Part shown: positions 5,668 to 21,522 of the stretch, one piece after another
Position numbering within the stretch: the first letter of the stretch is position 1
How the letters are laid out: every line of letters begins with the position of its first letter
Assembly (NCBI GenBank): GCA_963820825.1
Contig: CAWGBN010000006.1
Coordinates: 160,001 to 224,000, forward strand
Direction of reading: 5' to 3'
From: Vulcanimicrobiota bacterium
GTDB taxonomy: Bacteria; Vulcanimicrobiota; Vulcanimicrobiia; Vulcanimicrobiales; Vulcanimicrobiaceae
DNA length: 64,000 nucleotides
Notes under the pieces: model-generated
Databases searched by the model: none
What the model was told of the DNA's origin: nothing
Seen by the model: only the letters and a program-made list of their open reading frames with translations
Program-made: the position numbers and the translations under genes

Positions 5668-6605
5668 GGCTGCTGCGTCAGGACGATCACGACCGGTATC
5701 CCACCGACGTGCGGATAGTAATCCTCGCCGGCAAAGGCGGTCAGCAAGTACGTGCCGGGGCGCGCGATGCGCTCCTGCATCTGCTGCACGTCCGGAATCA
5801 ACTGCAGCGGTTGGAAGATGTCCGATAAGAACGGCGGCAAGTGGAGCCGCCGCGCGTTGATCGAGACGTAGTTCTGCAGCTGACTGATCGCGATGTTGAT
5901 GCTCGCTCCGCTCTTGCCCGGAATCACGAGTTGGGCGATGACCTGACCCTTGCGGAAGTAGCGGATATCCGGCGTGACGTTGATGGCAAAGTGAATCTGG
6001 TCGTTTTCAAAGAGATTCTGGTCGGAGGTTACGGTCAGCATGACGTTCGCCTGCGAGAGTGAGGCGGCCGTCGTCAAATCGTTCGCAAGACCGCTCAGCT
6101 TGCGATCCGCATCGGGCGGTATCGCGTAGGGCTTGAGCCCGAGGCGCGGGTAGGTCGCGTTGACGTACTTAACGGCAAAGAAATAGTAATCCCGGATCGT
6201 CTTGAGACGCTGCGAGGCGGAGGCCGTCTGCGAAATGATCCGGTAGAACGGCACCATCAGCGTATCGACGGGAAGTACGAGCCGGCCGTTGTTGACCTTC
6301 GCTTCGAGATCGCGCTGGCGCGCCTGCAGCTCGGTAATCTGCTGGTTGATCGAGTTGAGCTTGAAGAACGCCGTCTTCACCTCTTGCGAGGCAAAGATCG
6401 CCGTAAGCGAAACGACGAGCGCGATGATCACCCCGGTCGCGATCGCGACGATCGTCGACGTGTAGCGCGGCCGAATCCCGAAGAGGCTCAAGCGCCGGCG
6501 CCCGACCTGATGACCGACCCGGTCGCCGACGTAGGCGACCGCGCCGGCAAGCGCCATGACGGCTAACAGGTTTCCGATGCCGCGGACGATCTCGACGAAG
6601 TTCAT
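5664..6605 (-). CDS. DUF3084 domain-containing membrane protein
   Basis: AYVGDRVGHQVGRRRLSLFGIRPRYTS signature, two TM helices, then a coiled coil. ATG 6605 overlaps the lptF/G stop. Confidence 0.85.
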   Translation of the reverse strand: MNFVEIVRGIGNLLAVMALAGAVAYVGDRVGHQVGRRRLSLFGIRPRYTSTIVAIATGVIIALVVSLTAIFASQEVKTAFFKLNSINQQITELQARQRDLEAKVNNGRLVLPVDTLMVPFYRIISQTASASQRLKTIRDYYFFAVKYVNATYPRLGLKPYAIPPDADRKLSGLANDLTTAASLSQANVMLTVTSDQNLFENDQIHFAINVTPDIRYFRKGQVIAQLVIPGKSGASINIAISQLQNYVSINARRLHLPPFLSDIFQPLQLIPDVQQMQERIARPGTYLLTAFAGEDYYPHVGGIPVVIVLTQQP

Positions 6606-7705
6606 ACCAGTGCCGCGCGCCGCAGCCGGATCAGCCCGATCGCCGTAAAGAGGATATTCGGAACCCACGCCCAGAGCGCCGCGAGCGCGAGCATCGCCTC
6701 GGCGGCAAACGAGCAGGCCGTCATTACGACGTAGTAGACGAAGACGATCGCCAGCGAGACGCCGAAGCCGACGCTGGTGCTTCCGCTCGACCGAATCGAG
6801 CGCAGCCCGAACGGAATTGCGATGAGCATGAAGACGAAGCACGCGAACGGGCGCGCGAGCTTCTCTTGATAGGTGGCTACGTACTTGCGGTGCTCGGTCT
6901 CGGTCAGCTGACCCGAACGCACGACGTCCGCGATCTGGGACCGGCTCATGTTCTCCGGATCGTCGTTGCTCATGCGCTTGGTGAGGTCCGTTGGCCTCTC
7001 GCCGATTTCAACCTCCTGCTGCGGCACGCCGGGCTCGGAGAGCGTCGTTCCGTCGGGATTGAAGCGATAGACGCTCGAGTTCTCGAGTGTCCACTTATCG
7101 GCCGTGAACTCAGCGCGGTCGGCGAAGATGATCTGCCGGGGAGAGTTATGATTGTCGTATTGGATCAGCGTGACGTGCAGCAGCGCGCGCGAGTCCGGCT
7201 CGTAGGCCGTCGCAATCGTCACCTGCCTCCCCCCTCCCGGTAGCGGCGCCGAGACCGTGAGATCCCGATTGAACGCGCTGACGTGGTTGATCACCGCGTT
7301 CTCGATTTCGATCAACTGGTCGTTGGCATAGGGCACCACACGCTCTTGCAGCACGTACGTAACGACCGACATCACGATACCCACCGCGAGCAGCGGCGTG
7401 ACGATCCGCACGAAGGTTACCCCGGCAGCCTTTAGTGCCGTGATCTCGCTCTCGCCCGACAGGCGTTGCACCGCAAGCAGCGTTCCGAGCAGCAAGGCCA
7501 TCGGAATGACCAGCACGACGTCGGCCGGAAGCGACCAGCAGAAAACGAGCAGCGCCGCCCAGAGCGGCGCGTGCTCGTTGCTCACGAGCCTGCCGATATT
7601 CAAAATTTCCGTCGCCGCGAAGATCAGCGTAAACGCGGCCACGCCAAAAAGAAACGGCCCCGAAAGCTCGCTGAGCATATACCGATCGAGGATGGTAAAT
7701 CTCAT
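6602..7705 (-). CDS. LptF/LptG family LPS export permease
   Basis: ILDRYMLSEL, RLSGESEITALKAAGV and KLARPFACFVF motifs; six-TM layout. Confidence 0.93.
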   Translation of the reverse strand: MRFTILDRYMLSELSGPFLFGVAAFTLIFAATEILNIGRLVSNEHAPLWAALLVFCWSLPADVVLVIPMALLLGTLLAVQRLSGESEITALKAAGVTFVRIVTPLLAVGIVMSVVTYVLQERVVPYANDQLIEIENAVINHVSAFNRDLTVSAPLPGGGRQVTIATAYEPDSRALLHVTLIQYDNHNSPRQIIFADRAEFTADKWTLENSSVYRFNPDGTTLSEPGVPQQEVEIGERPTDLTKRMSNDDPENMSRSQIADVVRSGQLTETEHRKYVATYQEKLARPFACFVFMLIAIPFGLRSIRSSGSTSVGFGVSLAIVFVYYVVMTACSFAAEAMLALAALWAWVPNILFTAIGLIRLRRAALV

Positions 7706-7910: not shown

Positions 7911-8650
<740 letters not shown>

Positions 8651-8654
<4 letters not shown>

Positions 8655-9196
8655 TGCATCCGCATGTGAGTGAGTGAGATATCCGAGTCAAAGCTCGAAC
8701 CGGTCGCTCGGAAACCCTTCGGGTCGGTGACCACGACGTCGCCGGTTCCGTGCAGCATCCCGGTAGCTCGATCGTAAACGAGCTGCGTGCACTCCAACGT
8801 CATCCCCGACGACGTGCGAGCGTGAACGCCATTACGCAGCGTCACGGTCTTCGCCGCCTGATCGACGACCGCTTGGGGCGCGGTCGCGGCGATCGTGGCT
8901 CCGATACGGTGGAAGGTCACGCGCGCGTCTTGGAAGACCGCGAGCGCGCCTCCCTGAGGGCCCTTGCTCTCGTACGAGCTTGCCAGCAGATCGTAGTCGA
9001 CCCGGTTGTGGACTTGCTGAATGAGGTGCACGGGGCGGTGTGCCGTCCCCCGGCCCCTGATATCCAGCACCAGCGGGGTCGCCGTAGCGCGCGCCTTGGG
9101 TGCGGCCGACGGAGAGGGAGTCGCCTTGGGGGCTTGGGGATTGCATCCGGCACCCGCCACAAAGGCGATCGCCGCGACGACGCCGCGGTAGCGCAC
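8651..9196 (-). CDS. lptC: LPS export periplasmic protein, LptC-like (beta-jellyroll, possible lipoprotein)
   Basis: GTG at 9196; hydrophobic stretch ending in GAGC; jellyroll-like strands (LECTQLVYD...LHGTGDVVV); directly upstream of lptB. Confidence 0.75.
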
Positions 9197-9198
9197 GA

Positions 9199-10410
9199 TT
9201 ATCGCTCGATCGTCGGGCTCGGCTCGCCGCCGCGCGCGGCGGCGAGTGCGAGGCTCATGATCGGCATCCACAATCCGAAAATCACCACGGTCACGGTATC
9301 GATGAAGCCTTGCACGGCGACGCCGACCAGTCCCGCCGTAACGCTCAGCGCCAGGAGCGCCTGCGCGGGCGCAGCGACGGCGACGCGGCGCCGCAACTCC
9401 ACGGCGAACCGCCAGAGGGTCCATGCAACCGTAACCAGACCTACGAGCCCGAACTCGACGAAGAACGTCAAGTAGAGGCTATGCGCGTGGAATGCGGTCG
9501 CATCGCCGTCGGGCGCGCGCGCGAGCGCGTAGAGCCGCGAGAAGTTGAACGGCCCGACGCCGGTGAGCGGAAAGCGGTTTGCGATCTGGAGCGCGGCCTG
9601 CCAGATCGACAACCGCGTGTAGTCCTCGCTCGGATCGTGGTGCGCGTTGAAGAGGAGCAATACCGCAACGATTCCACCGGCCGCCACGACGGCCGCACCA
9701 CCGGCCGCACGCCGGCCGCGTGCCGCGAGCAAAAAGGCGACCGCCGCGGCGAATCCCATCCAGCCCGCACGCGAGTACGTGAGCCCCAGTGCGACGAGTC
9801 CGAGGACGAGCGTCGTCCAACCCAAGACTCGCAGAGCGCGACTCTCTCCCGCGTAGCCCAGCGCAAACGCAATCGGCAGCAGCACGATCAGATATCCGGC
9901 CAGCTCGCCGGGCAGGACGAAGGTCCCGGTAGCGCGGCCGTGCGCGATGGCATACTGCGCGGCCGGAAACCGCGTCGCGACCATCGCAATCGCCGCAGCC
10001 GATGCAATCGCGCCGGAAAGAAGAAAGCACCAATAGATCGTTACGGCGGCGTATCGATCCGTATAGAAACGCATCACCGAGGCTTGCCAAATGATCCCCA
10101 TTCCGCCGATTCCCGTAAAGAGCGTACCGGCAATCGGATCGAAGCCGGCGATACCGGCCACGACTCCGGCGCCGAAGACCGCCGCGAGCGGAAGCAGCAG
10201 CGGCTGCGAGCCGCGCTCGGGGTATCGTACGAGCATCGCGATCGCGTAGACGGCGAGCAGCGCGCAGAACGCGAGCACGATCGGCGTTACCGCGCGCGGA
10301 AGCAGCACGATGCCCGGAAAACCGACGGCGGTGAGGGCGATGAAACTCGGAAAGAGCGGTACGATCGCAAAGATCGCTCCGAGCGCCGCAGGCATCAAAC
10401 GCCGCATCAT
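9199..10410 (-). CDS. O-antigen ligase family protein
   Basis: Multi-TM; RATGTF, LTYSRAGW, RLSIWQAAL...PLTGVGPFNF and HAHSLYL motifs. Confidence 0.9.
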   Translation of the reverse strand: MMRRLMPAALGAIFAIVPLFPSFIALTAVGFPGIVLLPRAVTPIVLAFCALLAVYAIAMLVRYPERGSQPLLLPLAAVFGAGVVAGIAGFDPIAGTLFTGIGGMGIIWQASVMRFYTDRYAAVTIYWCFLLSGAIASAAAIAMVATRFPAAQYAIAHGRATGTFVLPGELAGYLIVLLPIAFALGYAGESRALRVLGWTTLVLGLVALGLTYSRAGWMGFAAAVAFLLAARGRRAAGGAAVVAAGGIVAVLLLFNAHHDPSEDYTRLSIWQAALQIANRFPLTGVGPFNFSRLYALARAPDGDATAFHAHSLYLTFFVEFGLVGLVTVAWTLWRFAVELRRRVAVAAPAQALLALSVTAGLVGVAVQGFIDTVTVVIFGLWMPIMSLALAAARGGEPSPTIER

Positions 10411-11567
10411 GATCGTGCGAGCAATTCGGCGATGCGTTCGGCGATCCGGTGCGACGCGCCCGGCGCCCCCATCCGCGACCGCCCGATCGCGCCCATGCGC
10501 GCGCGGCGCGCCGGGTCGTCCAAAATCTCCGCGACGCCCCGCGACGCGTCGCTCGCACCACCGGGAAGAACCGCGAGCGATTCGCCGAGCAGCCCTCGCT
10601 GGCGGCGGCGATACCAGCTCGACGTGCGATCCGATTCGCGTTCGAAGGCGATGACCGGAAGCGCGGCCGCCGCGGCGGCTTCGTTCGCGGTTCCCGCTTG
10701 GCCGAGAACGAGGACGACGCGTCCGAGCAGTGGGCCGAGCGGACCTTGCCAGCCGCGGACGATCTCGCGTCCGGCGCGGCTCAAGACGAACGGCACGCCC
10801 GGATGTGCCCCCGGCGCAACCTCCCAGCCGGCGCTGCGAGCGCCGCGGGCAAAGCGAGCCGGATCGAGTCCGGGCGCGACCGAGAGCACCGCGCCGAGCC
10901 GCTCCCGAGATGCTGCGAGCTCGCCGACGACGTCGAGGAGAAAGGCCGCATCGTCGTACGCGCTCTCTCGGCTTCCCGGAAAGAGCGCCAGCGCTGGCGC
11001 GAATCCGCTCACGGCGGCTTCGACACGCGGATCGTCCGGCGCGGCAAAGAGATCGACGATTGCGTTGGCCGCATCCGCTTCAACGCCGTGGCTTCGCAAT
11101 GCGAGCGCGGTTGCGTCGTCGCGCACGAAGCGGAGCGCGGCACGGGCCATGACCTGCCGTTCAAAGGGCCCGTATGGGGCGACCTCAACGCTCTTTGCCG
11201 TCCCGACGAATACCGCCGGCGCGCGCGTCAACAGCGTCATCGCGAGCGCGTATACGTCGCCGACCGCGACCGCCGCGTCGTACGCACCGCGCGCCTTCCG
11301 CAGGAACTTCGCCTGTGCCCACGTCAATCCGAGGAGACCGGCGCGCAGATCGCTCGCGAGATTGCGCGCGTTTCCCATTGCGATCAATCCGCCGCTGGGC
11401 AGCGCGCGACGCGGTCCGACGTCGCGCAGCTCGGTACCGAACCGGTCGCCGACGAGTGCGAGATGATCGAGCCGAGCGTCGGGCCGGCGCGTGCGAAGCT
11501 CGGCACCGATGCGCTGCGCGATCGCAGCCTCTCCGTGACCGTTGGTAACGAAGAGCACGCGATTCAC
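10407..11567 (-). CDS. Lipid-A-disaccharide synthase-related GT-B protein
   Basis: VLFVTNGHGE, LPSGG, AVGD, LFPGSR and QAGTANE motifs, typical of LpxB-related proteins. Confidence 0.8.
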   Translation of the reverse strand: MNRVLFVTNGHGEAAIAQRIGAELRTRRPDARLDHLALVGDRFGTELRDVGPRRALPSGGLIAMGNARNLASDLRAGLLGLTWAQAKFLRKARGAYDAAVAVGDVYALAMTLLTRAPAVFVGTAKSVEVAPYGPFERQVMARAALRFVRDDATALALRSHGVEADAANAIVDLFAAPDDPRVEAAVSGFAPALALFPGSRESAYDDAAFLLDVVGELAASRERLGAVLSVAPGLDPARFARGARSAGWEVAPGAHPGVPFVLSRAGREIVRGWQGPLGPLLGRVVLVLGQAGTANEAAAAAALPVIAFERESDRTSSWYRRRQRGLLGESLAVLPGGASDASRGVAEILDDPARRARMGAIGRSRMGAPGASHRIAERIAELLARS

Positions 11568-12313
11568 GCCGCGCCGCGTTCCAGCAGCGGAACGAGGGCG
11601 AACCCGGCCAGCGAGAATCGCCGCCGTTGCGGGTCGTACTCGAGCTCGCTGCGCGAAACGAAACGCCCGTAGGGACCGGCGTGCACGATCGGAACGGCTC
11701 CGGCATACTCCGGCTCGACCAGCGTGTCGTGACTATGCCCGCCGAGGATGAGATCGATGCGCGGTACGACCGCGGCGAGCCGACGGTCGAGCCGTAGCCC
11801 AACGTGCGAGAGCACGACCAAACAATCGCCCTCGGGAATTTGGCTTGCGTATGGCGCCACGGCGCTCCACGGCTCGAGAAAACGCCAGCCGAAGAGGCGC
11901 TCCCAGTTGCTTCCCGTTCGATACTGCATGACGAGCAGGCCGAGTACGTGCACCCGGACCGGCTCGCCGCTGTCGCCGGTTACGTCGAATCGGATCGACG
12001 GCAGAAAGGGCAACGCCCGACCCTTCGTGTCTTGCAGGTTGGTGCAGACGAGCGGATGGTGCATGCGCGCGGCGCGCGCGCGAAGCAACGCGAAGAGATA
12101 GTGAAATTCGCGATTGCCGATCGCTTGGGCGTCGTAACCCGCCGCATCCATCTCGGCAACGATCGGCTCGTCGCGATAGTAGAGGCTTTGGCTCCCCCGC
12201 AGCGAGTCGCCGCAATCGAAGAGCAGTCCCGGGTGCGCCGCGCGCAGCGCGCGCAGCGGCGCCACGATCCCTCGCCGGTCGTGGAGATCCGACGTGTGAT
12301 AGATGCGGATCAT
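11564..12313 (-). CDS. Calcineurin-like metallophosphoesterase (5'-nucleotidase N-terminal-type domain only)
   Basis: HTSDLH, DCGD, GNREFH, LSHVG and GGHSH metal-binding motifs. ATG 12313 overlaps the lpxB TGA. Confidence 0.88.
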   Translation of the reverse strand: MIRIYHTSDLHDRRGIVAPLRALRAAHPGLLFDCGDSLRGSQSLYYRDEPIVAEMDAAGYDAQAIGNREFHYLFALLRARAARMHHPLVCTNLQDTKGRALPFLPSIRFDVTGDSGEPVRVHVLGLLVMQYRTGSNWERLFGWRFLEPWSAVAPYASQIPEGDCLVVLSHVGLRLDRRLAAVVPRIDLILGGHSHDTLVEPEYAGAVPIVHAGPYGRFVSRSELEYDPQRRRFSLAGFALVPLLERGAA

Positions 12314-13425
12314 GCTGCGCCGCGCGCCAGCTCGACCGCGTACCGCGCGCAACGCTCGAGCGCGTCTGCAGGTCCGAGCGCCGCGCGCAAGGCGACGAAC
12401 TCTTCGTATTGCCGCGCGGGTTGCGCCATCAGCGATTCGATAGTAGCGGCAAGTGCCTCCGGCGTTGCCCGTTCCTGCAGCAACTCGGGGACGACCTCGC
12501 GTCCCAGTACGAGGTTCGGCAGCGTAATGAACCGGTGCTTGATCATTCGGTGCCCGTACCGGATAAGAATCGGCGGGATGACGTAGATTGCGACGGCCGG
12601 TACGCCGAGCAGCGCCGTCTCCAAGACCGCCGTCCCCGAGGCGACGATTGCCGCGTCGGCATCCTCGACCGCGGCGCCAACGCCGCGTGCGACGCTCACA
12701 TCCTTGAGCTTCTCGTCGTCGATCGAACGCCGGATCGATCGTTGCGCGCGATCGTCCGCCGCTCCGAATATACCGCGAAGGCGCGGCCGCCGCGATTGCA
12801 GCGCGCGCAGCGTCGCCGCCATGACCGGCAGATGCCGGCGCAGCTCGCCCGAGCGGCTCCCGGGCAACATCGCGACCGTTCCGCCGTCGGGCGAAGGCGC
12901 GTCGCGCAGCGGCCGCATCGCGTACCGGCTCGCCAACGGATGGCCGAAGAACTCGATACCGCAGCCGAGACTTCGATAGAAATCGTACTGGTGTTTGAAT
13001 GCCGTCACCGGCGCGGCAACGGCGGCAACGTTGCGCGCTTTCTCCGCGTTGTCGAGCCACGTACCGGGCGGAAAGAGATCCACGATCGGACCGGCGTAAT
13101 GCAAACGGCGGCGCAGCGTATTCGCCAATCGCAGATTGAAGACGCCGAAATCGACCAGCACGACCAAGTCCGGCTTCGACGCCACGATGTGGAAGGCCGT
13201 GCGCAGCATCGCGGCCAGCAGCTTGGGAATCCGCGGTATCGCCGCGAGCGGACCCATGCTCGCCCAGCCGCGGTGATTCATCCAAAGACGAAATCCTGCG
13301 TCTCGCATTCGAGTCCCACCGATTCCCTCGAACTCTGCTTGCGGATCGATTCTCCGAATGGCGTCGGCGAGTAGAATCGCCATCGCTTCGCCACTCGGCT
13401 CCCCCGTTGAAAAGAAGTACCGCAC
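12310..13425 (-). CDS. lpxB: Lipid-A-disaccharide synthase
   Basis: STGEPSGE, EGIGG, VLVDFGVFN, FFGHPL, LPGSRSGE, ASGTAVLE and ITLPNL motifs; GTG start at 13425. Confidence 0.93.
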   Translation of the reverse strand: MRYFFSTGEPSGEAMAILLADAIRRIDPQAEFEGIGGTRMRDAGFRLWMNHRGWASMGPLAAIPRIPKLLAAMLRTAFHIVASKPDLVVLVDFGVFNLRLANTLRRRLHYAGPIVDLFPPGTWLDNAEKARNVAAVAAPVTAFKHQYDFYRSLGCGIEFFGHPLASRYAMRPLRDAPSPDGGTVAMLPGSRSGELRRHLPVMAATLRALQSRRPRLRGIFGAADDRAQRSIRRSIDDEKLKDVSVARGVGAAVEDADAAIVASGTAVLETALLGVPAVAIYVIPPILIRYGHRMIKHRFITLPNLVLGREVVPELLQERATPEALAATIESLMAQPARQYEEFVALRAALGPADALERCARYAVELARGAA

Positions 13426-13429
13426 GCTA

Positions 13430-13601
13430 ACTGCTTCTGCGCCGGCCGCGACGTGCCGCGTCGGGGTCGCTCGTCGCCCGCATCCTGCGGGCTCCTGCTG
13501 CACCGCGCTCGCGCCGCCTGCTAAGAAAAATTATGACCTCCTGTCAGTGGCGCTCGCGTCGGAGGCCCCTCCACGGCACGTCGCAGCCGGCGAAGCGCAG
13601 T
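13430..13601 (-). repeat. Structured intergenic element, copy 2 (lpxA to lpxB)
   Basis: 18-bp terminal inverted repeat (13441-13458 / 13574-13591, 1 mismatch). Core blocks 13491-13515 and 13548-13564 are identical to copy 1. Confidence 0.85.
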
Positions 13602-13611
13602 CGCGGCGATG

Positions 13612-14379
13612 CTACTTTAAGACACCGCGCTGTGATGGGGCCTCTAGAAAGGCGATGATCTCGCGACCTGGATCGGTCGTCACTTGCTGCTTCATCGCCT
13701 CGATTGCTTGAGAGACATTGAGTTTGGGATCGTAAAGGAGCTTGTAGAAGTCCTTGATCTCTTTGCGCTCTTCGGCCGAGAAGGCTGCGCGGCGCAGTCC
13801 GACGCTGTTGAGGCCGTAGGGCCGGCACGGGTTGCCTTCGACGAGAAAGAACGGCGGCACGTCTTTGATGCACTTGCTCATTCCGCCGACCATCGCGTTG
13901 CGCCCGATGCGCGTGAACTGATGGACGCCGGTCTGGCCGCCGATCGTCACGTAGTCGCCGACGTGCACGTGTCCGGCGAGCTGCGCGAGATTGCTCATCG
14001 TCACGCCGTTGCCGAGAATGCAGTTGTGCGCGATGTGCACGTAGGCGAGCAGCAGGCAATCGTCGCCGACGGCGGTGACTTCGTCGTATCCGGTCGCGCG
14101 CTGAATGCTGACGTATTCGCGCAGCGTCGTGCGGTTGCCGACGCGTGTATACGCCCGCTCGCCGGCGTACTTGCGGTCCTGCGAGGCCGCTCCCACGGTC
14201 GAGAACGGATAGAGGACGCAATCGTCGCCGATCTCCGTCCAGCCGTTGACCACGACGTGCGCCTGCAGTACCGTGCGCGCGCCGATGCTGACGTGCTCGC
14301 CGACGATGCAGTAGGGGCCGATCTCCGCGTTCTTTCCGATCTCCGCCTGCGGATGGACGATCGCGCTGGGATGCAGCAT
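13612..14379 (-). CDS. lpxA: Acyl-ACP--UDP-N-acetylglucosamine O-acyltransferase
   Basis: Hexapeptide repeats; QDRKY, HIAHNC, LAGHV, VHQF and LNSVGLRR motifs. Confidence 0.97.
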   Translation of the reverse strand: MLHPSAIVHPQAEIGKNAEIGPYCIVGEHVSIGARTVLQAHVVVNGWTEIGDDCVLYPFSTVGAASQDRKYAGERAYTRVGNRTTLREYVSIQRATGYDEVTAVGDDCLLLAYVHIAHNCILGNGVTMSNLAQLAGHVHVGDYVTIGGQTGVHQFTRIGRNAMVGGMSKCIKDVPPFFLVEGNPCRPYGLNSVGLRRAAFSAEERKEIKDFYKLLYDPKLNVSQAIEAMKQQVTTDPGREIIAFLEAPSQRGVLK

Positions 14380-14397: not shown

Positions 14398-14877
14398 TCA
14401 GACATGCAGTACGCTGGCGTCGGCGCCGAACATGCGCGGGTCTGACACGATCGAGAACATTATCTCCGCGGAGCAGGCGAACTGGCCGTCGACCGTCGCC
14501 TCGCCGGTCACCCAGCCGATGTTTCGCTTGTGGCGCAACATCCGCACTTCCATGTCGAGCCGGTCGCCGGGCACGACCGGACGGCGGAACTTCGCTTTGT
14601 CGATGCCGGCGAGATACGGCGTCTTGCGCGAGAACTCGCCGGGCTCGAGGATCATCGCGCCGCCGAGCTGCGCGAGCGCTTCGATCATGTAGACGCCGGG
14701 CAGAACGGGATTTCCCGGGAAGTGTCCGGCAAAGATCTGCTCGTTGTACGTGATGTTCTTATAACCGCGAACGCGAACCATCGGCTCGAACTCGAGAATT
14801 CGGTCGACGAGCAGCATCGGGTAGCGGTGCGGCAATACTTCGAAGATCGCGCGAATATCGAGCTCGGCCAACGTCAT
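14398..14877 (-). CDS. fabZ: 3-hydroxyacyl-ACP dehydratase
   Basis: LPHRYPMLLVDR, GHFPGNPVLPGV.IEALAQ and FRRPVVPGD motifs. Confidence 0.97.
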   Translation of the reverse strand: MTLAELDIRAIFEVLPHRYPMLLVDRILEFEPMVRVRGYKNITYNEQIFAGHFPGNPVLPGVYMIEALAQLGGAMILEPGEFSRKTPYLAGIDKAKFRRPVVPGDRLDMEVRMLRHKRNIGWVTGEATVDGQFACSAEIMFSIVSDPRMFGADASVLHV

Positions 14878-14880
14878 CTC

Positions 14881-15702
14881 CTAGGCGGACGGAACGCTTA
14901 CGTGGGCGCGCAGTGCGCGCGTCATCGCTGCATGGAGTTCGTGACCGCTCTTGATCGCGACGACTTCACACTGCGGCCACGATCCGAGCAGCGCAAAATC
15001 GCCGATCAGATCGAGTACTTTGTGGCGTACCGGCTCGTCGGGCCAGCGCAGGGGCTGCATCGGCCCGTCGGGCGCGAAGACGAGCGCGTTCTCGAGGCTT
15101 CCGCCGCGTCCCAAGCCGCGCGCCCACAACGCCTCGATCTCGTGCAGATAGGCAAAGGTTCGCGCGCCGGCGATTTCCGTTCGATAACGCGCCGGGTCGA
15201 TCGTTTCGTTGAAATACTGCGTGCCGATCGGTGGGGGGAAATCGGCGACGAAACGTACTCGGAACGCCTCCGCCGGAAAGATCGCAATCATCCGGTCGCC
15301 GGCGCGAATCCAGAGCGGCGTCTCGATCTCCAAGATCCGCCGCGGTTGCGGCTGCGCGGCTAAGCCGCAGGCTTCGATCGCCGCAACGAACTCGGCGGCG
15401 CTTCCGTCCCGAGCCGGAATCTCCGGGCCGTCGACGTGGATCTCCGCATTCGTCACCCCCATTGCGAAGAGCGCGGAGAGCAGATGCTCGGTCGTGGATA
15501 CGGTCGATCCGTTGCGCCCGAGCACGGTCGCGCGCGACGTATCCACAATGTTCTCGGCGAGCGCGGGCACGCGCGTATTCCCGAGCACGAAGCTTATTCC
15601 GTCATCGGGGGGAGCCGGTCGAACCTCCACTGCAGCAGGCGCGCCCGTATGAAGACCGATTCCTTCGAAGTGGAGCGGGGTGCGTAGCGTCGCTTGCGTC
15701 AC
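14881..15702 (-). CDS. lpxC: UDP-3-O-acyl-GlcNAc deacetylase
   Basis: GIGLHTG, TTEHLLSAL, DGSA, IAGARTF, RHKVLDLIGD and KSGH motifs. Confidence 0.97.
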   Translation of the reverse strand: MTQATLRTPLHFEGIGLHTGAPAAVEVRPAPPDDGISFVLGNTRVPALAENIVDTSRATVLGRNGSTVSTTEHLLSALFAMGVTNAEIHVDGPEIPARDGSAAEFVAAIEACGLAAQPQPRRILEIETPLWIRAGDRMIAIFPAEAFRVRFVADFPPPIGTQYFNETIDPARYRTEIAGARTFAYLHEIEALWARGLGRGGSLENALVFAPDGPMQPLRWPDEPVRHKVLDLIGDFALLGSWPQCEVVAIKSGHELHAAMTRALRAHVSVPSA

Positions 15703-15708
15703 GCGGCG

Positions 15709-16728
15709 TCAATCGTCCGAGCGCGAGCGCTCGAGAGCCTTAACACGATCGAACAGCTTTGGCAGCTTGCGAATCATGACCTCTTGACGGAGATCCTCGC
15801 GATGATCGCGCGCCGGGTTGCCGGAGATGGTGGCGCCGTCGGCGACGTCACCCCAGACGCCGGATCGCCCGGCGATGGTTACGTGCGAACCGACGGTCAT
15901 GTGACCCCGGAAACCGACCTGACCGGCAACCTTGACGTAATCGCCGATGACCGTCGAGCCTGCGAGTCCGGTCAGCGACGCGATGACGCAATGCTTGCCA
16001 ATTCGAGAGTTGTGGCCGATCTGAACGAGATTGTCGATCTTGGTTCCCGCGCCGATTCGGGTGCTGCCGGTCTGCGCGCGATCGATGCACGTGTTCGCAC
16101 CGACCTCCACGTCGTCTTCGAGTACGACGTTTCCGACCTGCGGGATGCGCTCGGCACGCCCGTCGACGAACGCCCACCCGAAGCCCTCGCTGCCGATCAC
16201 GCACCCGGCGTGCAGAACCACGCGATCGCCGAGCTGGGCTCCCGCCATGACGCAGACGCGCGGATGGATCCAGACCGAGCTTCCGATGGCGACGCCGTCG
16301 CCGACGTAGGCTCCCGCCTCGACGACGCTGCCGTCGCCGATCGCGGCCCCGCTGCCGATGTAAACGTGCGCACCGATGTAGACGCCGGCCCCGAGTCGCG
16401 CGTCGTCGGCGACGACGGCGCTGGGATCGCGAAACGATCCGCGCGGCCGCGCCGGGCGGAAGGCGTCCAGCAACTGCGCGAGCGCTTGACGCACGTTCTC
16501 GACGACAATGAGCGGCTTTGCTGCCGCCTTCGGCGCCAAAGAAGCCTCCACGACGATCGCTGCCGCCTTGCCGGCGAGCGCGGTCTCGAGGTACTTGTCG
16601 CTGGTCGCGAAGGTCAACGCGTCCCCGCCTGCCTCGTCAACGGTGCTGATACGCGCGATGCGAATGCTTCCGTCGCCGGCAACGCGTCCACCGATGCGCG
16701 CAGCGAGTTCAGCGAGCGTACCCAGCAT
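15709..16728 (-). CDS. lpxD: UDP-3-O-(3-hydroxyacyl)glucosamine N-acyltransferase
   Basis: MLGTLAELA start; hexapeptide repeats; IGSEGFG, IPQVG and TKIDNLVQIGHN motifs. Confidence 0.96.
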   Translation of the reverse strand: MLGTLAELAARIGGRVAGDGSIRIARISTVDEAGGDALTFATSDKYLETALAGKAAAIVVEASLAPKAAAKPLIVVENVRQALAQLLDAFRPARPRGSFRDPSAVVADDARLGAGVYIGAHVYIGSGAAIGDGSVVEAGAYVGDGVAIGSSVWIHPRVCVMAGAQLGDRVVLHAGCVIGSEGFGWAFVDGRAERIPQVGNVVLEDDVEVGANTCIDRAQTGSTRIGAGTKIDNLVQIGHNSRIGKHCVIASLTGLAGSTVIGDYVKVAGQVGFRGHMTVGSHVTIAGRSGVWGDVADGATISGNPARDHREDLRQEVMIRKLPKLFDRVKALERSRSDD

Positions 16729-16742
16729 GACTCTCCAGGCCG

Positions 16743-17150
16743 CTACTTGCCCGGCGTGGGCGTCGCCTTCTCCGTAATGTTGAGCGCCTTCTCGACGTCG
16801 GCGGTGATGTCCACGCCGCCGTAACCGATTCCCTCGCGCGTCAAGACGAGCTTGAGCTGCCGCTGGGAGGCGATTCGACCGGCCGCATCGCGGATCTGCT
16901 GGGAGAGCGCATTGGTGACCCGTTCGTACTTGCGCTGCAGATCGAAGGCCGCGCGCTGCTTGCGCGCCGAGCTCTCGCGCCGCGACTGAATCGAGCGCTC
17001 GTCGTTGTAGAGCTGGTTCTGATAGCCCTGATACTCGGGCCAGTTCGCGACGATCCGCTGCACGTCGACGAGTCCGATCGGACTCTTCGGCGCGCATCCG
17101 GCCAGCGCCGCCGCGGCGCTAAAGAACAGAACGTACGCGTATCTTTTCAT
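16743..17150 (-). CDS. Short Skp/OmpH-like protein with lipobox
   Basis: ALAGC lipobox; IGLVDVQRI N-terminal strand and YGGVDITADV C-terminal motif of OmpH. Confidence 0.75.
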   Translation of the reverse strand: MKRYAYVLFFSAAAALAGCAPKSPIGLVDVQRIVANWPEYQGYQNQLYNDERSIQSRRESSARKQRAAFDLQRKYERVTNALSQQIRDAAGRIASQRQLKLVLTREGIGYGGVDITADVEKALNITEKATPTPGK

Positions 17151-18403
17151 TCGTGTTGACTCTCGACGTCGCTGATCACTTGGTTCGTTAAGTCGTAGCC
17201 GCCCGCGGCCGCCCAAATATCTGAGAAGACGATGCTGAACCCCTTTTCCTTGGCGATGCGCTTCGCGTCCCGCTCTACCTGCCCCACGATCTGTTGGTAG
17301 AGTTCGCCGCGGCGCTTCTGGAGTGCGTCGAGCTCTCTCCCCGCCGCTCCGGTCGCCCCGACGTCCGCTCCGTGCAGCGCCGCAAACTGTCGATCGAGAT
17401 CGCTCTTGGTCGCGTTGTAATCTTGAACCGTCTTGGCCGCGTCGGCCTGAAATTCCCCGACGTACTGCCGATGGATTGCGGCGATGCGGTTCTGGACGTC
17501 GGGCGGAACGTTCGTCGGCATCGAGGGCGGCCCCAGGCTGCGCAACTGCGAGCCGACCTCGTTGCGCCGCTCCTCGAGCTTCGCTCGAGTCTGATCGTGA
17601 ATCGCGCCGACTTGGTTGCGCATCGCGTCGCCGGTTTGACGATCGAGCTCGGCGTGGTAGGCGCGCAGCGTCGCCGCGTCGGCGTTGCGCATCGTTTCGA
17701 GTGCGGCCGCCTCTTTTGCATTGATCGCCCCGAGCTGATCTTGGGCTTGTTTACGCGCCGCCGGATCGAGCGCGAGGTTCGAGAGCCGCATCTTGATTGC
17801 CAGGCGCGCGCCCGCGTCGCTCTGCGTCAAGCGAAGCGAGAGATCGGTCTCGTTCTGCTGGAGCTGCTCGGCTTTGGCACGATACTTTTGCGCCGCCTGG
17901 ATCTGCAGCTGCCTGGCGATCGAGGAGGTGGCGGCGCTGTCTTGCGAGATGACGTTCTGCTGGTAAGCCATGAGATCTTGATCGGCGGCTCGCGCCGCCT
18001 GCTGGACTTGCTGGGCCGAAGCGCCGCTCATCTGTGCGGCGGCAGAAGCCCCCGAACCGTGTATGCCGGCGGCGGCGAGCGCCGCCGAAATCGCCTGATT
18101 CTCGCGATTGGCATAATCCCGCTGCTTCAGCGCCAGAATCTTGTTCGCGCGCGTTTGCGCGTCGTAGAGCTCGCGATTGAGCTGCTTGGTCTGCGCGGCG
18201 ATCTGTGCCGCGCCGAGCGGCACCTGCCGCGGGGTGGATTGCAGGTTGATCGCTGCGATCGCGTCGTCGAGCTGCGAGAGCTGTCCGTAGAGCGGGTGGT
18301 GCTTGACGACGTCGGCTACTCGTATGTAGCCGGCCCCGCGAATCGCCGACGAGTGGACGTTCGGAGCGCAGGCGGCGACCGTCAAAAGTGCGGCGCACGT
18401 CAT
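17147..18403 (-). CDS. Long coiled-coil Skp/OmpH-like protein, probable lipoprotein
   Basis: LLTVAAC; GYIRVADVVKHHP near N-terminus; very long Q/A-rich helices; C-terminal IAKEKGFSIVF...GGYDLTNQV. Confidence 0.7.
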   Translation of the reverse strand: MTCAALLTVAACAPNVHSSAIRGAGYIRVADVVKHHPLYGQLSQLDDAIAAINLQSTPRQVPLGAAQIAAQTKQLNRELYDAQTRANKILALKQRDYANRENQAISAALAAAGIHGSGASAAAQMSGASAQQVQQAARAADQDLMAYQQNVISQDSAATSSIARQLQIQAAQKYRAKAEQLQQNETDLSLRLTQSDAGARLAIKMRLSNLALDPAARKQAQDQLGAINAKEAAALETMRNADAATLRAYHAELDRQTGDAMRNQVGAIHDQTRAKLEERRNEVGSQLRSLGPPSMPTNVPPDVQNRIAAIHRQYVGEFQADAAKTVQDYNATKSDLDRQFAALHGADVGATGAAGRELDALQKRRGELYQQIVGQVERDAKRIAKEKGFSIVFSDIWAAAGGYDLTNQVISDVESQHE

Positions 18404-18407
18404 GGCG

Positions 18408-19211
18408 CTACTTCGTAAGCTCATTTTGGACATCGGTCGTGATGTCCGTGCCCCCATAGATAACGTCGGCCTTGTCGATGACCAGCAGCAAGTTCTTCTT
18501 CCGGGCGACGTCGGCGGTCGCCGAACGCGTCTGATCGACCAGCGGCTTGAGCAGCTGCTCTTGCTTGTCGGAGATCGTTTTGTTGTACTGCTGGAGTATC
18601 TGCTGTTTGTCGCTCGCGCTGCGCGCGCTCGCGATTTGCGCCGAGAAGATCGAACGCTGCGTGCTCTCGAAGGAATTCATCGCGTTGTTCGCCGCTTGCA
18701 CCTTCGGCACGCCGTCGAGCACGTTCTGGTCGACGTAGCCGATCTCCGAGGGCGGCGGCGTCGCACTCGGCGGCTGGACCGCCTGCGAGCTCGCGAATAC
18801 CGCTTCGACGTCCTTGGTGATGTCTTGGCCCCCGTAGATCACGACGCGCTTGTCGACTATGACCGTGAGATTGCGGGAGGCGCTGACCGCAGCGATTGCA
18901 AGCTGCGCGCGCTGGAAGAGCGGACCGACGATCTCGCGCTGCTTATCGTTGAGCTGTTGCTGAAACTGCATGGCAACCTGCTGTTTCTCCGCATCGCTGC
19001 GCGCGTGCTTGACTTGCGCGTTGAACTGGGCGTCGAGCTGCGACTTATAGCCGGCCAGCTGCCGGTTCGCCACGATGAAGACCGGCAAGTTCGCAAGCTG
19101 CGCCTGATCGATGTACCCGACGTCCGTGAGATCCGCCGCAATCGCACCGCGCGCGCTCCATAAAGCGAGCGCGACGCCGCCGGCGAAGAGTATCGCTGAC
19201 CTAATCTTCAT
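18408..19211 (-). CDS. Tandem two-domain Skp/OmpH protein
   Basis: Signal peptide, then two repeats: VGYIDQ...YGGQDITKDV and IGYVDQ...YGGTDITTDV. Confidence 0.85.
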   Translation of the reverse strand: MKIRSAILFAGGVALALWSARGAIAADLTDVGYIDQAQLANLPVFIVANRQLAGYKSQLDAQFNAQVKHARSDAEKQQVAMQFQQQLNDKQREIVGPLFQRAQLAIAAVSASRNLTVIVDKRVVIYGGQDITKDVEAVFASSQAVQPPSATPPPSEIGYVDQNVLDGVPKVQAANNAMNSFESTQRSIFSAQIASARSASDKQQILQQYNKTISDKQEQLLKPLVDQTRSATADVARKKNLLLVIDKADVIYGGTDITTDVQNELTK

Positions 19212-19260
19212 GCGCGTTCTATTGGTCTCCCGGGCGGCGTGGCCTGCCGCGCTCGCGTGG

Positions 19261-21522
19261 CTAGAAGCTCTGGCCGATTCCAAAGCTCGTGTGCGTTCCG
19301 TTTATTCCCTTGGCGAAGTCGATCCGGACCGTGCGCAGGCCGAGTTGCGGCACGTCGAAGCGGATGCCGAACCCGGCGTCCCCATAGAGCGCCCAGTCGG
19401 CCGGATATCCCGTAACACGGTTGGTATACGGATTGAGCAATGGGTAGGCACCTCTGATGTGGTAATCGAGCTCGTCGATAAAGACCGCCAGGGTGATTCG
19501 CCGGTCGAGCGCCACCGGTTGACGGAGCTCGATCTGCCCGAGATACGCATTGGTCGCGTAGAAGACTTGATTGTAGCCGCGCATCTGCTGATCGGAGAAC
19601 GTAAAGAGCGAGCTGGGCGGAATCACGCCGGTAGAGTTATCGGCGACTCCGTGAATGCCCAGCGTGGCGTCCTTAAGTATCGGGAAGAACTTTGCGATGT
19701 CGAGCGTCGACTGGGTAAAGGTGAAGTTCGAGCCGAGCGCCGGTGCCGAGATCGTGGCGTTCAACAGTGCGTGAACGCCCGTGCGAGGATTGAACGGATC
19801 GTCGAGCGTGATCGTCTGTAAGCTGAGCCCCGGCTGAACCAGATTGTACGGCGCGCCGGTGTTCACGTTGGCAATCGACGATGCGGCGATACCGAAGGAA
19901 CCGCCGTAGCTGTTCGACCCGGAGCTGATTGGGCTGGGCGTCGGACCGATGACGATGTTCGGCTGGTTCCCTTGGAAATAGTACGGCGAGGGAACGGTCG
20001 TGTTGTACCGGATCCGTTGCGCGCTCAACGAGAGCGAGAAAAGGGTGTAGTCGCTCAGACGCCGTCCAATATTTCCGGTGACGCCATTTGCGCTCGAGAC
20101 GCTCGTCGCGTTGACGCCCGATACCAGTGAGGAGTTCGTGCTCGAATACAGGGTGACCGGAATGGGAACCGCGGAGCCGCTCTTGATCGCGGTTCCGGAG
20201 CCCGAGATCGCGTAGACCGGATAGTAGTAGGTCGTGTGGTTCGTGAAGATCGAGCCGCCGGCCGTGTACTTTTCGCCTTTCGGCGTATTGCTGAGGTAGG
20301 GCACCGAGACCGTCAGCTGGGCGATTCCGGCGCGCGCACCCTCTTGGAGTTGCAGACCGGCCGAGTTTCCGGTGCCGTGCAGGTTGTTATCGGAGAAACC
20401 GAGGGTCGCATAGAGCCCCAGGCCCGTCAGACCGCCGGAGTAACCGAAACCGACCGAGGCCGTCGCCGTGCGTTGCTCGGTGACGTGCCAAACGAGCGTC
20501 ACGTCTTGCGGCTTCTTCGGATCGGGGCCGGGCTTAATGTCGGGCTCGACCTTCGAGAAAAAGTTCAGCGCGTTGAGGCGCTGGTAGTCGTGTTTGATCG
20601 CGTCGGTGTTGAGCACCATTCCCGGACGCTCGCGCAGTTCGCGCCGGATCACTGCGTCCTTCGTACGCGTGTTGCCGGTGATCTCGACGACCGCGATCCG
20701 CGCGACGTAGATATCGTACTTGACGTCCGCGGTGCCGGCCTGAAGATTGATCGACGACGGGACGATGCCGCCTTCGAAGTTTCCGACCTCGAGGTGGAAG
20801 GTGTCCTCGTACAGCTTCTGCAGCGCTTTGTAGTCGGCGTCGCGCACGGCGTCGGAGTAGATGCCGCCGGGCTTGAGCGTGAGATGCGGCAGAATGTATG
20901 GCGGCGGCAGCAGCGGATCGCCGCCGATGATGATCTGCTTAACGACCAGGCCTTCCTGGATCGTGAGCGTCAGCGCGCCGGTCTGCGAATCGAGATTGAT
21001 GTCCTTGACGTGCGTCGGCACCTGGCCGCCGTAGCCGATCCGCTCGTAATAGTTGTTGATTTTGAGAACGTCTTGCCTGAAGGTGTTCGTATTGAAGACT
21101 TGCCCAACGGAGAGGTCCATGAGCGCGGCGAGCGTATCGCTCGGAACCTTCTGGTTTCCCGTGAAGGCGATTTTGGTGATGACCGGATTCTCGACGACCC
21201 GGTAAGTGATCGCGATGCCGTTGGGTCGCTGACGGATCAGCGGCGGAGCGATGTCGGCGAAGTACCCCAGCGCGTTGATCCGGGCAAGGTCCTGCTGAAC
21301 GATTTTCGGATCGTACGGCTGGCCCGGACGTGCGGCGATCACGGACATGATCGTCTGCGTCGGCACGTGGAGGTTCCCGGTGATATCGACCGAGACGATC
21401 TTCGGCGCTGCTGCGAATGCCGGGACGCTTGGGGTGAGGCACAAACCCGTCATTGCGAGGAGCGCGAGCACCGCCACATAGCGTTGAAACGGCCCCAGTC
21501 GCCGCCGGGGATCAAAGGTCAT
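19261..21522 (-). CDS. bamA: Outer membrane protein assembly factor (Omp85)
   Basis: Signal peptide, about four POTRA repeats (ITGN, FTGN, ITGNTRT...IRREL), MRGY loop motif, C-terminal FGIGQSF. Confidence 0.92.
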   Translation of the reverse strand: MTFDPRRRLGPFQRYVAVLALLAMTGLCLTPSVPAFAAAPKIVSVDITGNLHVPTQTIMSVIAARPGQPYDPKIVQQDLARINALGYFADIAPPLIRQRPNGIAITYRVVENPVITKIAFTGNQKVPSDTLAALMDLSVGQVFNTNTFRQDVLKINNYYERIGYGGQVPTHVKDINLDSQTGALTLTIQEGLVVKQIIIGGDPLLPPPYILPHLTLKPGGIYSDAVRDADYKALQKLYEDTFHLEVGNFEGGIVPSSINLQAGTADVKYDIYVARIAVVEITGNTRTKDAVIRRELRERPGMVLNTDAIKHDYQRLNALNFFSKVEPDIKPGPDPKKPQDVTLVWHVTEQRTATASVGFGYSGGLTGLGLYATLGFSDNNLHGTGNSAGLQLQEGARAGIAQLTVSVPYLSNTPKGEKYTAGGSIFTNHTTYYYPVYAISGSGTAIKSGSAVPIPVTLYSSTNSSLVSGVNATSVSSANGVTGNIGRRLSDYTLFSLSLSAQRIRYNTTVPSPYYFQGNQPNIVIGPTPSPISSGSNSYGGSFGIAASSIANVNTGAPYNLVQPGLSLQTITLDDPFNPRTGVHALLNATISAPALGSNFTFTQSTLDIAKFFPILKDATLGIHGVADNSTGVIPPSSLFTFSDQQMRGYNQVFYATNAYLGQIELRQPVALDRRITLAVFIDELDYHIRGAYPLLNPYTNRVTGYPADWALYGDAGFGIRFDVPQLGLRTVRIDFAKGINGTHTSFGIGQSF

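Follow-up and report, generated by a model that had tools for sequence, protein, structure and literature searches.

We propose that P0001, our shorthand for a 249-aa metallophosphoesterase encoded in the lipid A cluster of an Eremiobacterota genome, may be a convergent fourth UDP-2,3-diacylglucosamine pyrophosphatase beside LpxH, LpxI and LpxG, a reading to which we give a probability of roughly 55%. The broader statement that P0001 is a lipid A pathway gene in Eremiobacterota is well supported. A cytoplasmic N domain, an arginine in motif III, residence in an lpx cluster and a phylum in which the known enzymes were not found would together be explained most simply by UDP-diacylglucosamine pyrophosphatase activity. 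Below, "the window" is the whole 64,000-nucleotide stretch of DNA that was analysed, and "the host genome" is its source assembly (G000).

The lipid X step is the only step of lipid A synthesis for which three separate solutions are known. If our proposal is true, a nucleotidase domain that acquired the LpxH arginine on its own would provide the fourth, a clear instance of convergence at an active site; it would also fill the pathway gap of an entire phylum, perhaps of Armatimonadota as well, and would bear on the making of the outer membrane in deep-branching diderms. The link to the TIGR03492-type gene next to P0001 points to a second uncharacterised enzyme, one that is also carried by cyanobacteria. 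Within the literature searched, largely the main texts of papers outside subscription, we found no paper on such an enzyme or on how Eremiobacterota or Armatimonadota make lipid X, and none that deals with TIGR03492 or names it.

The phosphoesterase gene and its cluster

The initial annotation of this locus had described a calcineurin-like frame overlapping the lpxB stop, and its coordinates and overlap (ATGA, shared with the P0001 start codon) proved exact (Table 1). The P0001 stop overlaps in turn the GTG start (GTGA) of a TIGR03492-type gene that the initial annotation did not mention, although it turned out to be the steadier of the two neighbours. The cluster runs in the order bamA, three ompH-like genes, lpxD, lpxC, fabZ, lpxA, lpxB, P0001, TIGR03492, O-antigen ligase, lptC, lptB, lptF/G and DUF3084. 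The five genes lpxD, lpxC, fabZ, lpxA and lpxB, as previously listed, all lie upstream of P0001 and are recognised by profile or Pfam matches; the window lpxB reaches 141.7 bits with TIGR00215, below the cut-off of 190, and passes Pfam PF02684. Neither lptA nor msbA was recognised in the window cluster, which has one lptF/G gene only, and promoter and terminator scans gave results at or below chance.

Table 1. Positions of P0001, its third motif and the surrounding cluster genes in the window
Feature	Position	Strand	Remarks
lptF/lptG family permease, single gene	6602..7705	-	profile match
lptB	7911..8654	-	profile match
LptC-like protein	8651..9142	-	weak match, start approximate
O-antigen ligase family protein	9199..10410	-	PF04932
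TIGR03492-type "lipid-A-disaccharide synthase-related" protein	10407..11567	-	203.6 bits (cut-off 219.2); GT-B fold; start overlaps P0001 stop
P0001, stand-alone UshA-type metallophosphoesterase	11564..12313	-	249 aa; predicted metal ligands D9, H11, D36, N67, H170, H193, H195
P0001 motif III, GNRE	12107..12118	-	R68 aligns with UshA His117, H71 with UshA Asp120
lpxB, lipid A disaccharide synthase	12310..13503	-	longest frame; true start probably near 13410-13430; stop overlaps P0001 start
lpxA	13612..14379	-	profile match
fabZ	14398..14877	-	profile match
lpxC	14881..15702	-	profile match
lpxD	15709..16737	-	profile match, start approximate
Three OmpH/Skp-like genes, tandem	16743..19283	-	Pfam
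bamA-type Omp85 gene	19261..21522	-	profile match

The sole Pfam match in P0001 is PF00149 (22.8 bits, cut-off 21.5); the chain does not contain the 5'-nucleotidase C-terminal domain (PF02872), so the earlier description of a stand-alone calcineurin-like domain holds. Its best NCBIfam, PDB-sequence and fold matches are N-terminal domains of the SoxB/UshA/CD73 type, with YunD and NadN also among them. The predicted model has a pLDDT of 96, and in the fold search 5'-nucleotidase-type N-terminal domains matched it with Z 25-27 (best 27.2) and an rmsd of 2.5-3.4; P. aeruginosa LpxH ranked 43 with Z 10.5. Alignment to E. coli UshA keeps all seven metal ligands (Table 1). With the metal-binding Asp as early as residue 9 and the 19-residue hydropathy peaking at 1.17, there is no room for a membrane anchor or for a signal peptide, the latter as the initial annotation had stated; within the family, the motif I Asp falls in the first 24 residues in 216 of the 218 proteins where it was located. 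The model has 22 residues between H170 and H193 with one 10-residue helix there, and a helical insertion domain of the LpxH lid type is absent from it. The nearest relatives of P0001 are 80-87% identical and labelled Ca. Cybelea or Eremiobacterota, and on this ground the host is assigned to that phylum.

The apparent gap at the lipid X step across the phylum

The absence of a recognisable lpxH or lpxI, remarked on in the initial annotation, extends well beyond the cluster. In the host genome (85% complete), lpxH, lpxI and lpxG profiles gave no match, and E. coli LpxH and YaeI as queries found nothing (best E 0.27 and 0.078). Across a sample of 251 genomes from Eremiobacterota, including 8 unpublished genomes that enter these tallies only, neither LpxI (PF06230) nor LpxH (TIGR01854) was matched at E<=0.001; Caulobacter served as the positive control for the former profile, and E. 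coli and Bacteroides for the latter. LpxG (NF033458) is over its cut-off in 0/251, a cut-off that no control genome passes. Weak YkuE/LpxG-type matches to NF033458 occur in 81/251 genomes, 59/69 in the phylum's other class (hereafter the second class) and 22/181 in the class of the source genome (the host class).

A P0001 orthologue is present in 180 of 182 host-class genomes, and a short stand-alone orthologue in 34 of the 35 second-class genomes tested, the raw tally of 249/251 including ordinary nucleotidases. Two of the three misses have the TIGR03492 gene cut by a contig end; in the third, lpxC opens a late-numbered contig and no good match to TIGR03492 was obtained. Such clusters, cut or placed on short contig pieces, fit assembly gaps.

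Other candidates for the lipid X enzyme were rejected. Cdh occurs in only 4 of 101 phylum genomes. A YfcE-like GNRD protein (G000:C7:316196-316924) is family-restricted, with matches at E<=1e-20 in 31/32 against 0/68, and carries the Arg in just one of 30 copies (motif III being GNTD in 25, GNKD in 3, GNRD in 1 and GNTE in 1). The only other PF00149/PF12850 proteins of the host genome, namely a second YfcE-like protein, a TIGR00282 protein and a secreted phosphoesterase, are not lpx-linked.

LpxK is marginally over its cut-off in 1/101 phylum genomes and WaaA has no match in the host genome (85% complete), so that other lipid A steps must differ too. These absences recall the four-enzyme pathway of Cyanobacteria, which the passages cited from PMC3087551 credit, together with Dictyoglomi, with lpxA, C, D and B only. 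Since Cyanobacteria lack a known lipid X enzyme as well, the gap in the phylum does not by itself demand P0001. A cultured member of the phylum has been described as having an LPS-covered outer membrane with abundant 3-OH fatty acids (PMC9758169).

Conserved residues and descent of the family

In UshA, the catalytic residues His117 and Asp120 act as a dyad. We compared 47 GNRE family rows, picked partly for that motif, with 29 outgroup domains. The seven metal ligands and Arg68 are invariant in 47/47 family rows, the Arg68 position being His in 28/29 outgroup rows. Asp occupies the Asp120 position in 25/29 of the outgroup and in 0/47 family rows, where His or Asn mostly takes its place, and position 80 has a new basic residue in 47/47. 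As descriptive averages over related sequences, the helix after motif III (segment 68-85) has a net charge of +2.9 in the family versus -0.7 in the outgroup, and segment 128-146 has an aromatic fraction of 0.20 versus 0.08. The GNRE motif, correctly read in the initial annotation, is carried by all of the best 120 P0001 matches and by all 140 loci, a result that does not depend on how the rows were chosen. Only among the weakest matches of a wider search is it replaced by GNHE or GNHD.

In the tree (midpoint root), one branch with support 100/96 parts the family from the outgroup, and it holds two clades, a Vulcanimicrobiia-type and an Armatimonadota-type; the latter labels rest on four named proteins and Atlas clusters. 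The metagenome scan for the family covered 3 of 64 parts. No family member was found in viral contigs, and the 25 listed of 312 plasmid matches did not exceed 34% identity and resembled ordinary nucleotidases; TIGR03492 had no match in plasmids. Judged by sequence and fold, P0001 belongs to the 5'-nucleotidase branch, in a derived and truncated form, and not to the LpxH family.

Gene neighbourhood

Among close relatives (80 loci fetched), lpxB is directly upstream and TIGR03492 directly downstream of P0001 in 79/79 assessable cases each, counts that are not independent but show that the arrangement is not due to chance. At 31-40% identity the orthologue is still single-copy and in the lpx cluster across both classes, with lpxB within 5 kb in 36 of 43 more distant genomes. 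Of the 30 second-class genomes that could be assessed, 29 have TIGR03492 downstream (4 of the 34 were not counted) versus lpxB nearby in 27 of 34, the exception being G002, in which P0001 stays with lpxB and TIGR03492 does not adjoin. The seven genomes without a nearby lpxB comprise contig breaks (G100, G009, G046), true separations (G007, G014) and ambiguous cases (G020, G066). TIGR03492 is still attached to P0001 in every lpxB-separated genome that has downstream DNA, and in G007 and G014, possibly also in G020 and G066, the two genes moved away from lpxB as a unit. TIGR03492 is thus the steadier neighbour of P0001.

Fusions add to this picture. Four of the 120 longer forms listed have GNRE. 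P0285 (640 aa) and P0292 (650 aa) contain both domains whole and in frame, with TIGR03492 over its cut-off, each as one sequence on one contig; the two look unrelated in sequence and differ in GC style (high versus low). P0286 (LpxB plus the P0001 domain) and P0294 were rejected as true fusions, since their out-of-frame-looking stretches are probable sequencing frameshifts, and we therefore claim no LpxB fusion. Long frames joining neighbours are common in the lpx cluster (lpxC-fabZ, lpxB-second glycosyltransferase, second glycosyltransferase-LmtA-like), so a P0001-TIGR03492 fusion shows a shared pathway and not which step is shared.

Armatimonadota-type metagenome loci differ. In 0/7 does lpxB or TIGR03492 adjoin the gene, although two of the loci are shorter than 3 kb and in two more a single flank is visible. 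The contexts are mixed (release factor, argB/lgt, secA region). In L162, kdsD-kdsC immediately precedes the GNRE gene, and predicted membrane glycosyltransferases follow it in L162 and L163. Stand-alone 5'-nucleotidase C-domain (PF02872) genes are directly upstream in L166 (9208-9885) and L176 (9126-9851), a reversed domain order that is possibly a trace of origin of the family by fission. The expectation in the initial annotation that homologues would be lpx-linked is thus borne out in 36/43 distant genomes and fails in the seven Armatimonadota-type loci, and the gene follows TIGR03492 where the Eremiobacterota cluster breaks.

In second-class clusters, lpxB and P0001 are often separated by genes for another LpxB-like glycosyltransferase and for an LmtA-like methyltransferase, the latter a weak match (62.7 bits, cut-off 325), with GnnA/GnnB-like genes upstream. 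The LmtA-like and GnnA/GnnB-like genes of L141-L160 have homologues in the host genome in a sugar-nucleotide cluster on contig C8. By their sequences, these genes suggest a diaminoglucose lipid A with a methylated 1-phosphate, which the passages cited from PMC10248169 describe for Leptospira only so far. The LmtA-like gene is a hint that the 1-phosphate, and thus lipid X, is kept. Many second-class clusters also have an unannotated gene of 580-600 aa between lpxD and lpxC (L143:13709-15499, L147:1296-3038), with two homologues in the host genome, one of them at about 770-2140 of the window. In G003:C1 and G012:C1 (L156, L157) an inversion splits the cluster so that lpxD, the P0001 homologue and TIGR03492 face lpxB, whose frame of 816-845 aa is apparently fused to the second glycosyltransferase.

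Both the Synechococcus and the Deinococcus control contain TIGR03492, although lpxB has no match in Deinococcus. In fold its model is nearest to UDP-GlcNAc 2-epimerases; these and other GT-B folds match too loosely (TM ~0.6) to indicate which reaction it catalyses. A third LpxB-like GT-B gene, 8 kb past the window (G000:C6:232051-233163; L245:3037-4266), is located among gmhA, both hldE halves and a heptosyltransferase, and its homologue follows lpxB in second-class clusters. With WaaA and LpxK unmatched, this gene may be the one that attaches the first core sugar to lipid A.

Proposed function and alternative explanations

The initial annotation suggested a replacement for LpxH/LpxI. The gap is real in the genomes sampled from the phylum, and position, distribution and the invariant His-to-Arg change that parallels LpxH favour such a role. 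At the family level P0001 is not a homologue of LpxH: its descent is from 5'-nucleotidases. In the mechanism we propose, P0001 would cut UDP-2,3-diacylglucosamine into lipid X and UMP and so feed LpxB, which needs lipid X as its acceptor (PMC10248169). The two metals, probably Mn, of a cytoplasmic centre would coordinate the alpha-phosphate and activate a water molecule, and Arg68 would grip the beta-phosphate in the manner of LpxH Arg80. The enzyme may dock on the inner membrane through its basic helix 68-85 and aromatic loop 128-146, with the acyl chains staying in the bilayer rather than entering an LpxH-type lid. Several reports on related enzymes bear on this proposal. According to the passages cited from Okada 2016 (PMC5016852) and Opiyo 2010 (PMC3087551), the motif III His is an Arg only in LpxH, and in the LpxH structure this Arg grips the lipid X phosphate (PMC5016852). 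CpdB loses nearly all of its nucleotidase activity when either the C domain or His117 is missing, and the kcat of its lone N domain on CDP-choline rises (PMC7922932). Among the counterpoints are the lack of a lid, the departure of the gene from lpxB together with TIGR03492, the two TIGR03492 fusions, the 0/7 Armatimonadota-type loci beside lpxB, and the fact that a motif III Arg also arises by drift, as in one of 30 YfcE-like copies.

The main alternative is that P0001 partners TIGR03492 in another lipid A or glycolipid step, for instance by stripping off a phosphate to make way for a sugar or by breaking down released UDP, with lipid X made otherwise. We regard this as less likely than our proposal. 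The greater constancy of TIGR03492 (79/79 and 29/30), the joint moves in G007 and G014, the in-frame fusions P0285 and P0292 and the lack of LpxK (1/101, marginal) and of a WaaA match in the host genome all speak for it, yet fusions of neighbours are common in the cluster and each P0001 fusion is one sequence on one contig, and G002 keeps its P0001 orthologue with lpxB where TIGR03492 does not adjoin. TIGR03492 probably also works without a P0001-type enzyme, since it occurs in the Synechococcus and Deinococcus controls and no cyanobacterial or Deinococcus name appears among the minority of GNRE matches that bear names. Phosphate removal would moreover be at odds with CthPnkp, in which the motif III His is needed for the Mn-dependent monoesterase activity and not for the acyclic diesterase activity (PMC2190708), although the same paper also credits this His with charge neutralisation, which an Arg could supply. 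The pyrophosphatase reading and this one can both hold: P0001 and TIGR03492 might form a two-enzyme module, sometimes in one chain, in which P0001, a 5'-nucleotidase scaffold converged on the LpxH arginine, makes lipid X and TIGR03492, as an LpxB-like GT-B enzyme, builds on it without LpxK or WaaA. This combination is rather doubtful at present; if it were true, it would provide a fourth enzyme class and a first handle on the short lpxACDB pathway common to Eremiobacterota and cyanobacteria.

It is unlikely, in our judgement, that P0001 is a cytoplasmic pyrophosphatase of general use, acting on nucleotide sugars, CDP-alcohols or dinucleotides, that happens to be encoded in an envelope operon and has no dedicated lipid A role. 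UshA does act on UDP-sugars, CDP-alcohols and diadenosine polyphosphates (PMC7922932), and the mixed Armatimonadota-type contexts described above would suit such an enzyme. However, an unspecific cytoplasmic UDP-sugar hydrolase would presumably be wasteful, the gene stays single-copy and within the lpx cluster in both classes at identities of 31-40%, and even among the Armatimonadota-type loci L162 has the kdsD-kdsC genes upstream and both L162 and L163 the predicted membrane glycosyltransferases downstream. That P0001 is half of a split 5'-nucleotidase whose C domain is encoded separately, as the PF02872 genes upstream in L166 and L176 might indicate, seems highly improbable: PF02872 has no match in the host genome (85% complete), in 63 of 71 family genomes or in 9/9 of family f3, the catalytic His is lost in P0001, and by eye the C-domain protein of L176 starts with a signal-like stretch whereas the phosphoesterase does not.

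Comparison with known systems

By profile and fold, P0001 is not a member of the LpxH, LpxG or LpxI families. With LpxH (TIGR01854; P. aeruginosa 5B49, E. coli b0524) it shares a two-metal site of the calcineurin-like kind, built from seven ligands of matching type, the motif III Arg, a cytoplasmic location and, as proposed here, the reaction. It belongs nevertheless to another branch of the superfamily (hhalign probability 0.6%, Z 10.5), has GNRE where LpxH has GNRD, and gives no hit to TIGR01854 (cut-off 190.35), with which the E. coli LpxH control scores 388.9. The lid of LpxH, a four-helix insertion at residues 119-173 that buries the acyl chains (PMC5016852), has no equivalent in the P0001 model.

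LpxI (PF06230) would have the same product and adjoins lpxB in the lpxACDIBK clusters of diderm Firmicutes (PMC5007114), but it is unrelated in sequence, PF06230 is not found in P0001, and LpxI attacks the beta-phosphate (PMC4807358). LpxG of Chlamydia (NF033458) is the precedent for recruitment of a second calcineurin-like family to the lipid X step (PMC4807358). Unlike P0001, with its GNRE motif and top hydropathy of 1.17, LpxG has GNHD, an N-terminal membrane helix and YaeI/YkuE kin (PMC4807358), and NF033458 (cut-off 350) has no match to P0001.

The closest likeness, in both fold and sequence, is to the N-terminal domain of the UshA/5'-nucleotidase family (UshA 1USH, T. thermophilus 2Z1A, CD73, CpdB, SoxB, B. 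subtilis YunD). From these proteins P0001 differs in having neither the C-terminal substrate domain nor a signal peptide, in being held in an lpx cluster, and in the replacement of His117 by Arg, with Asp120 mostly replaced by His or Asn within its family.
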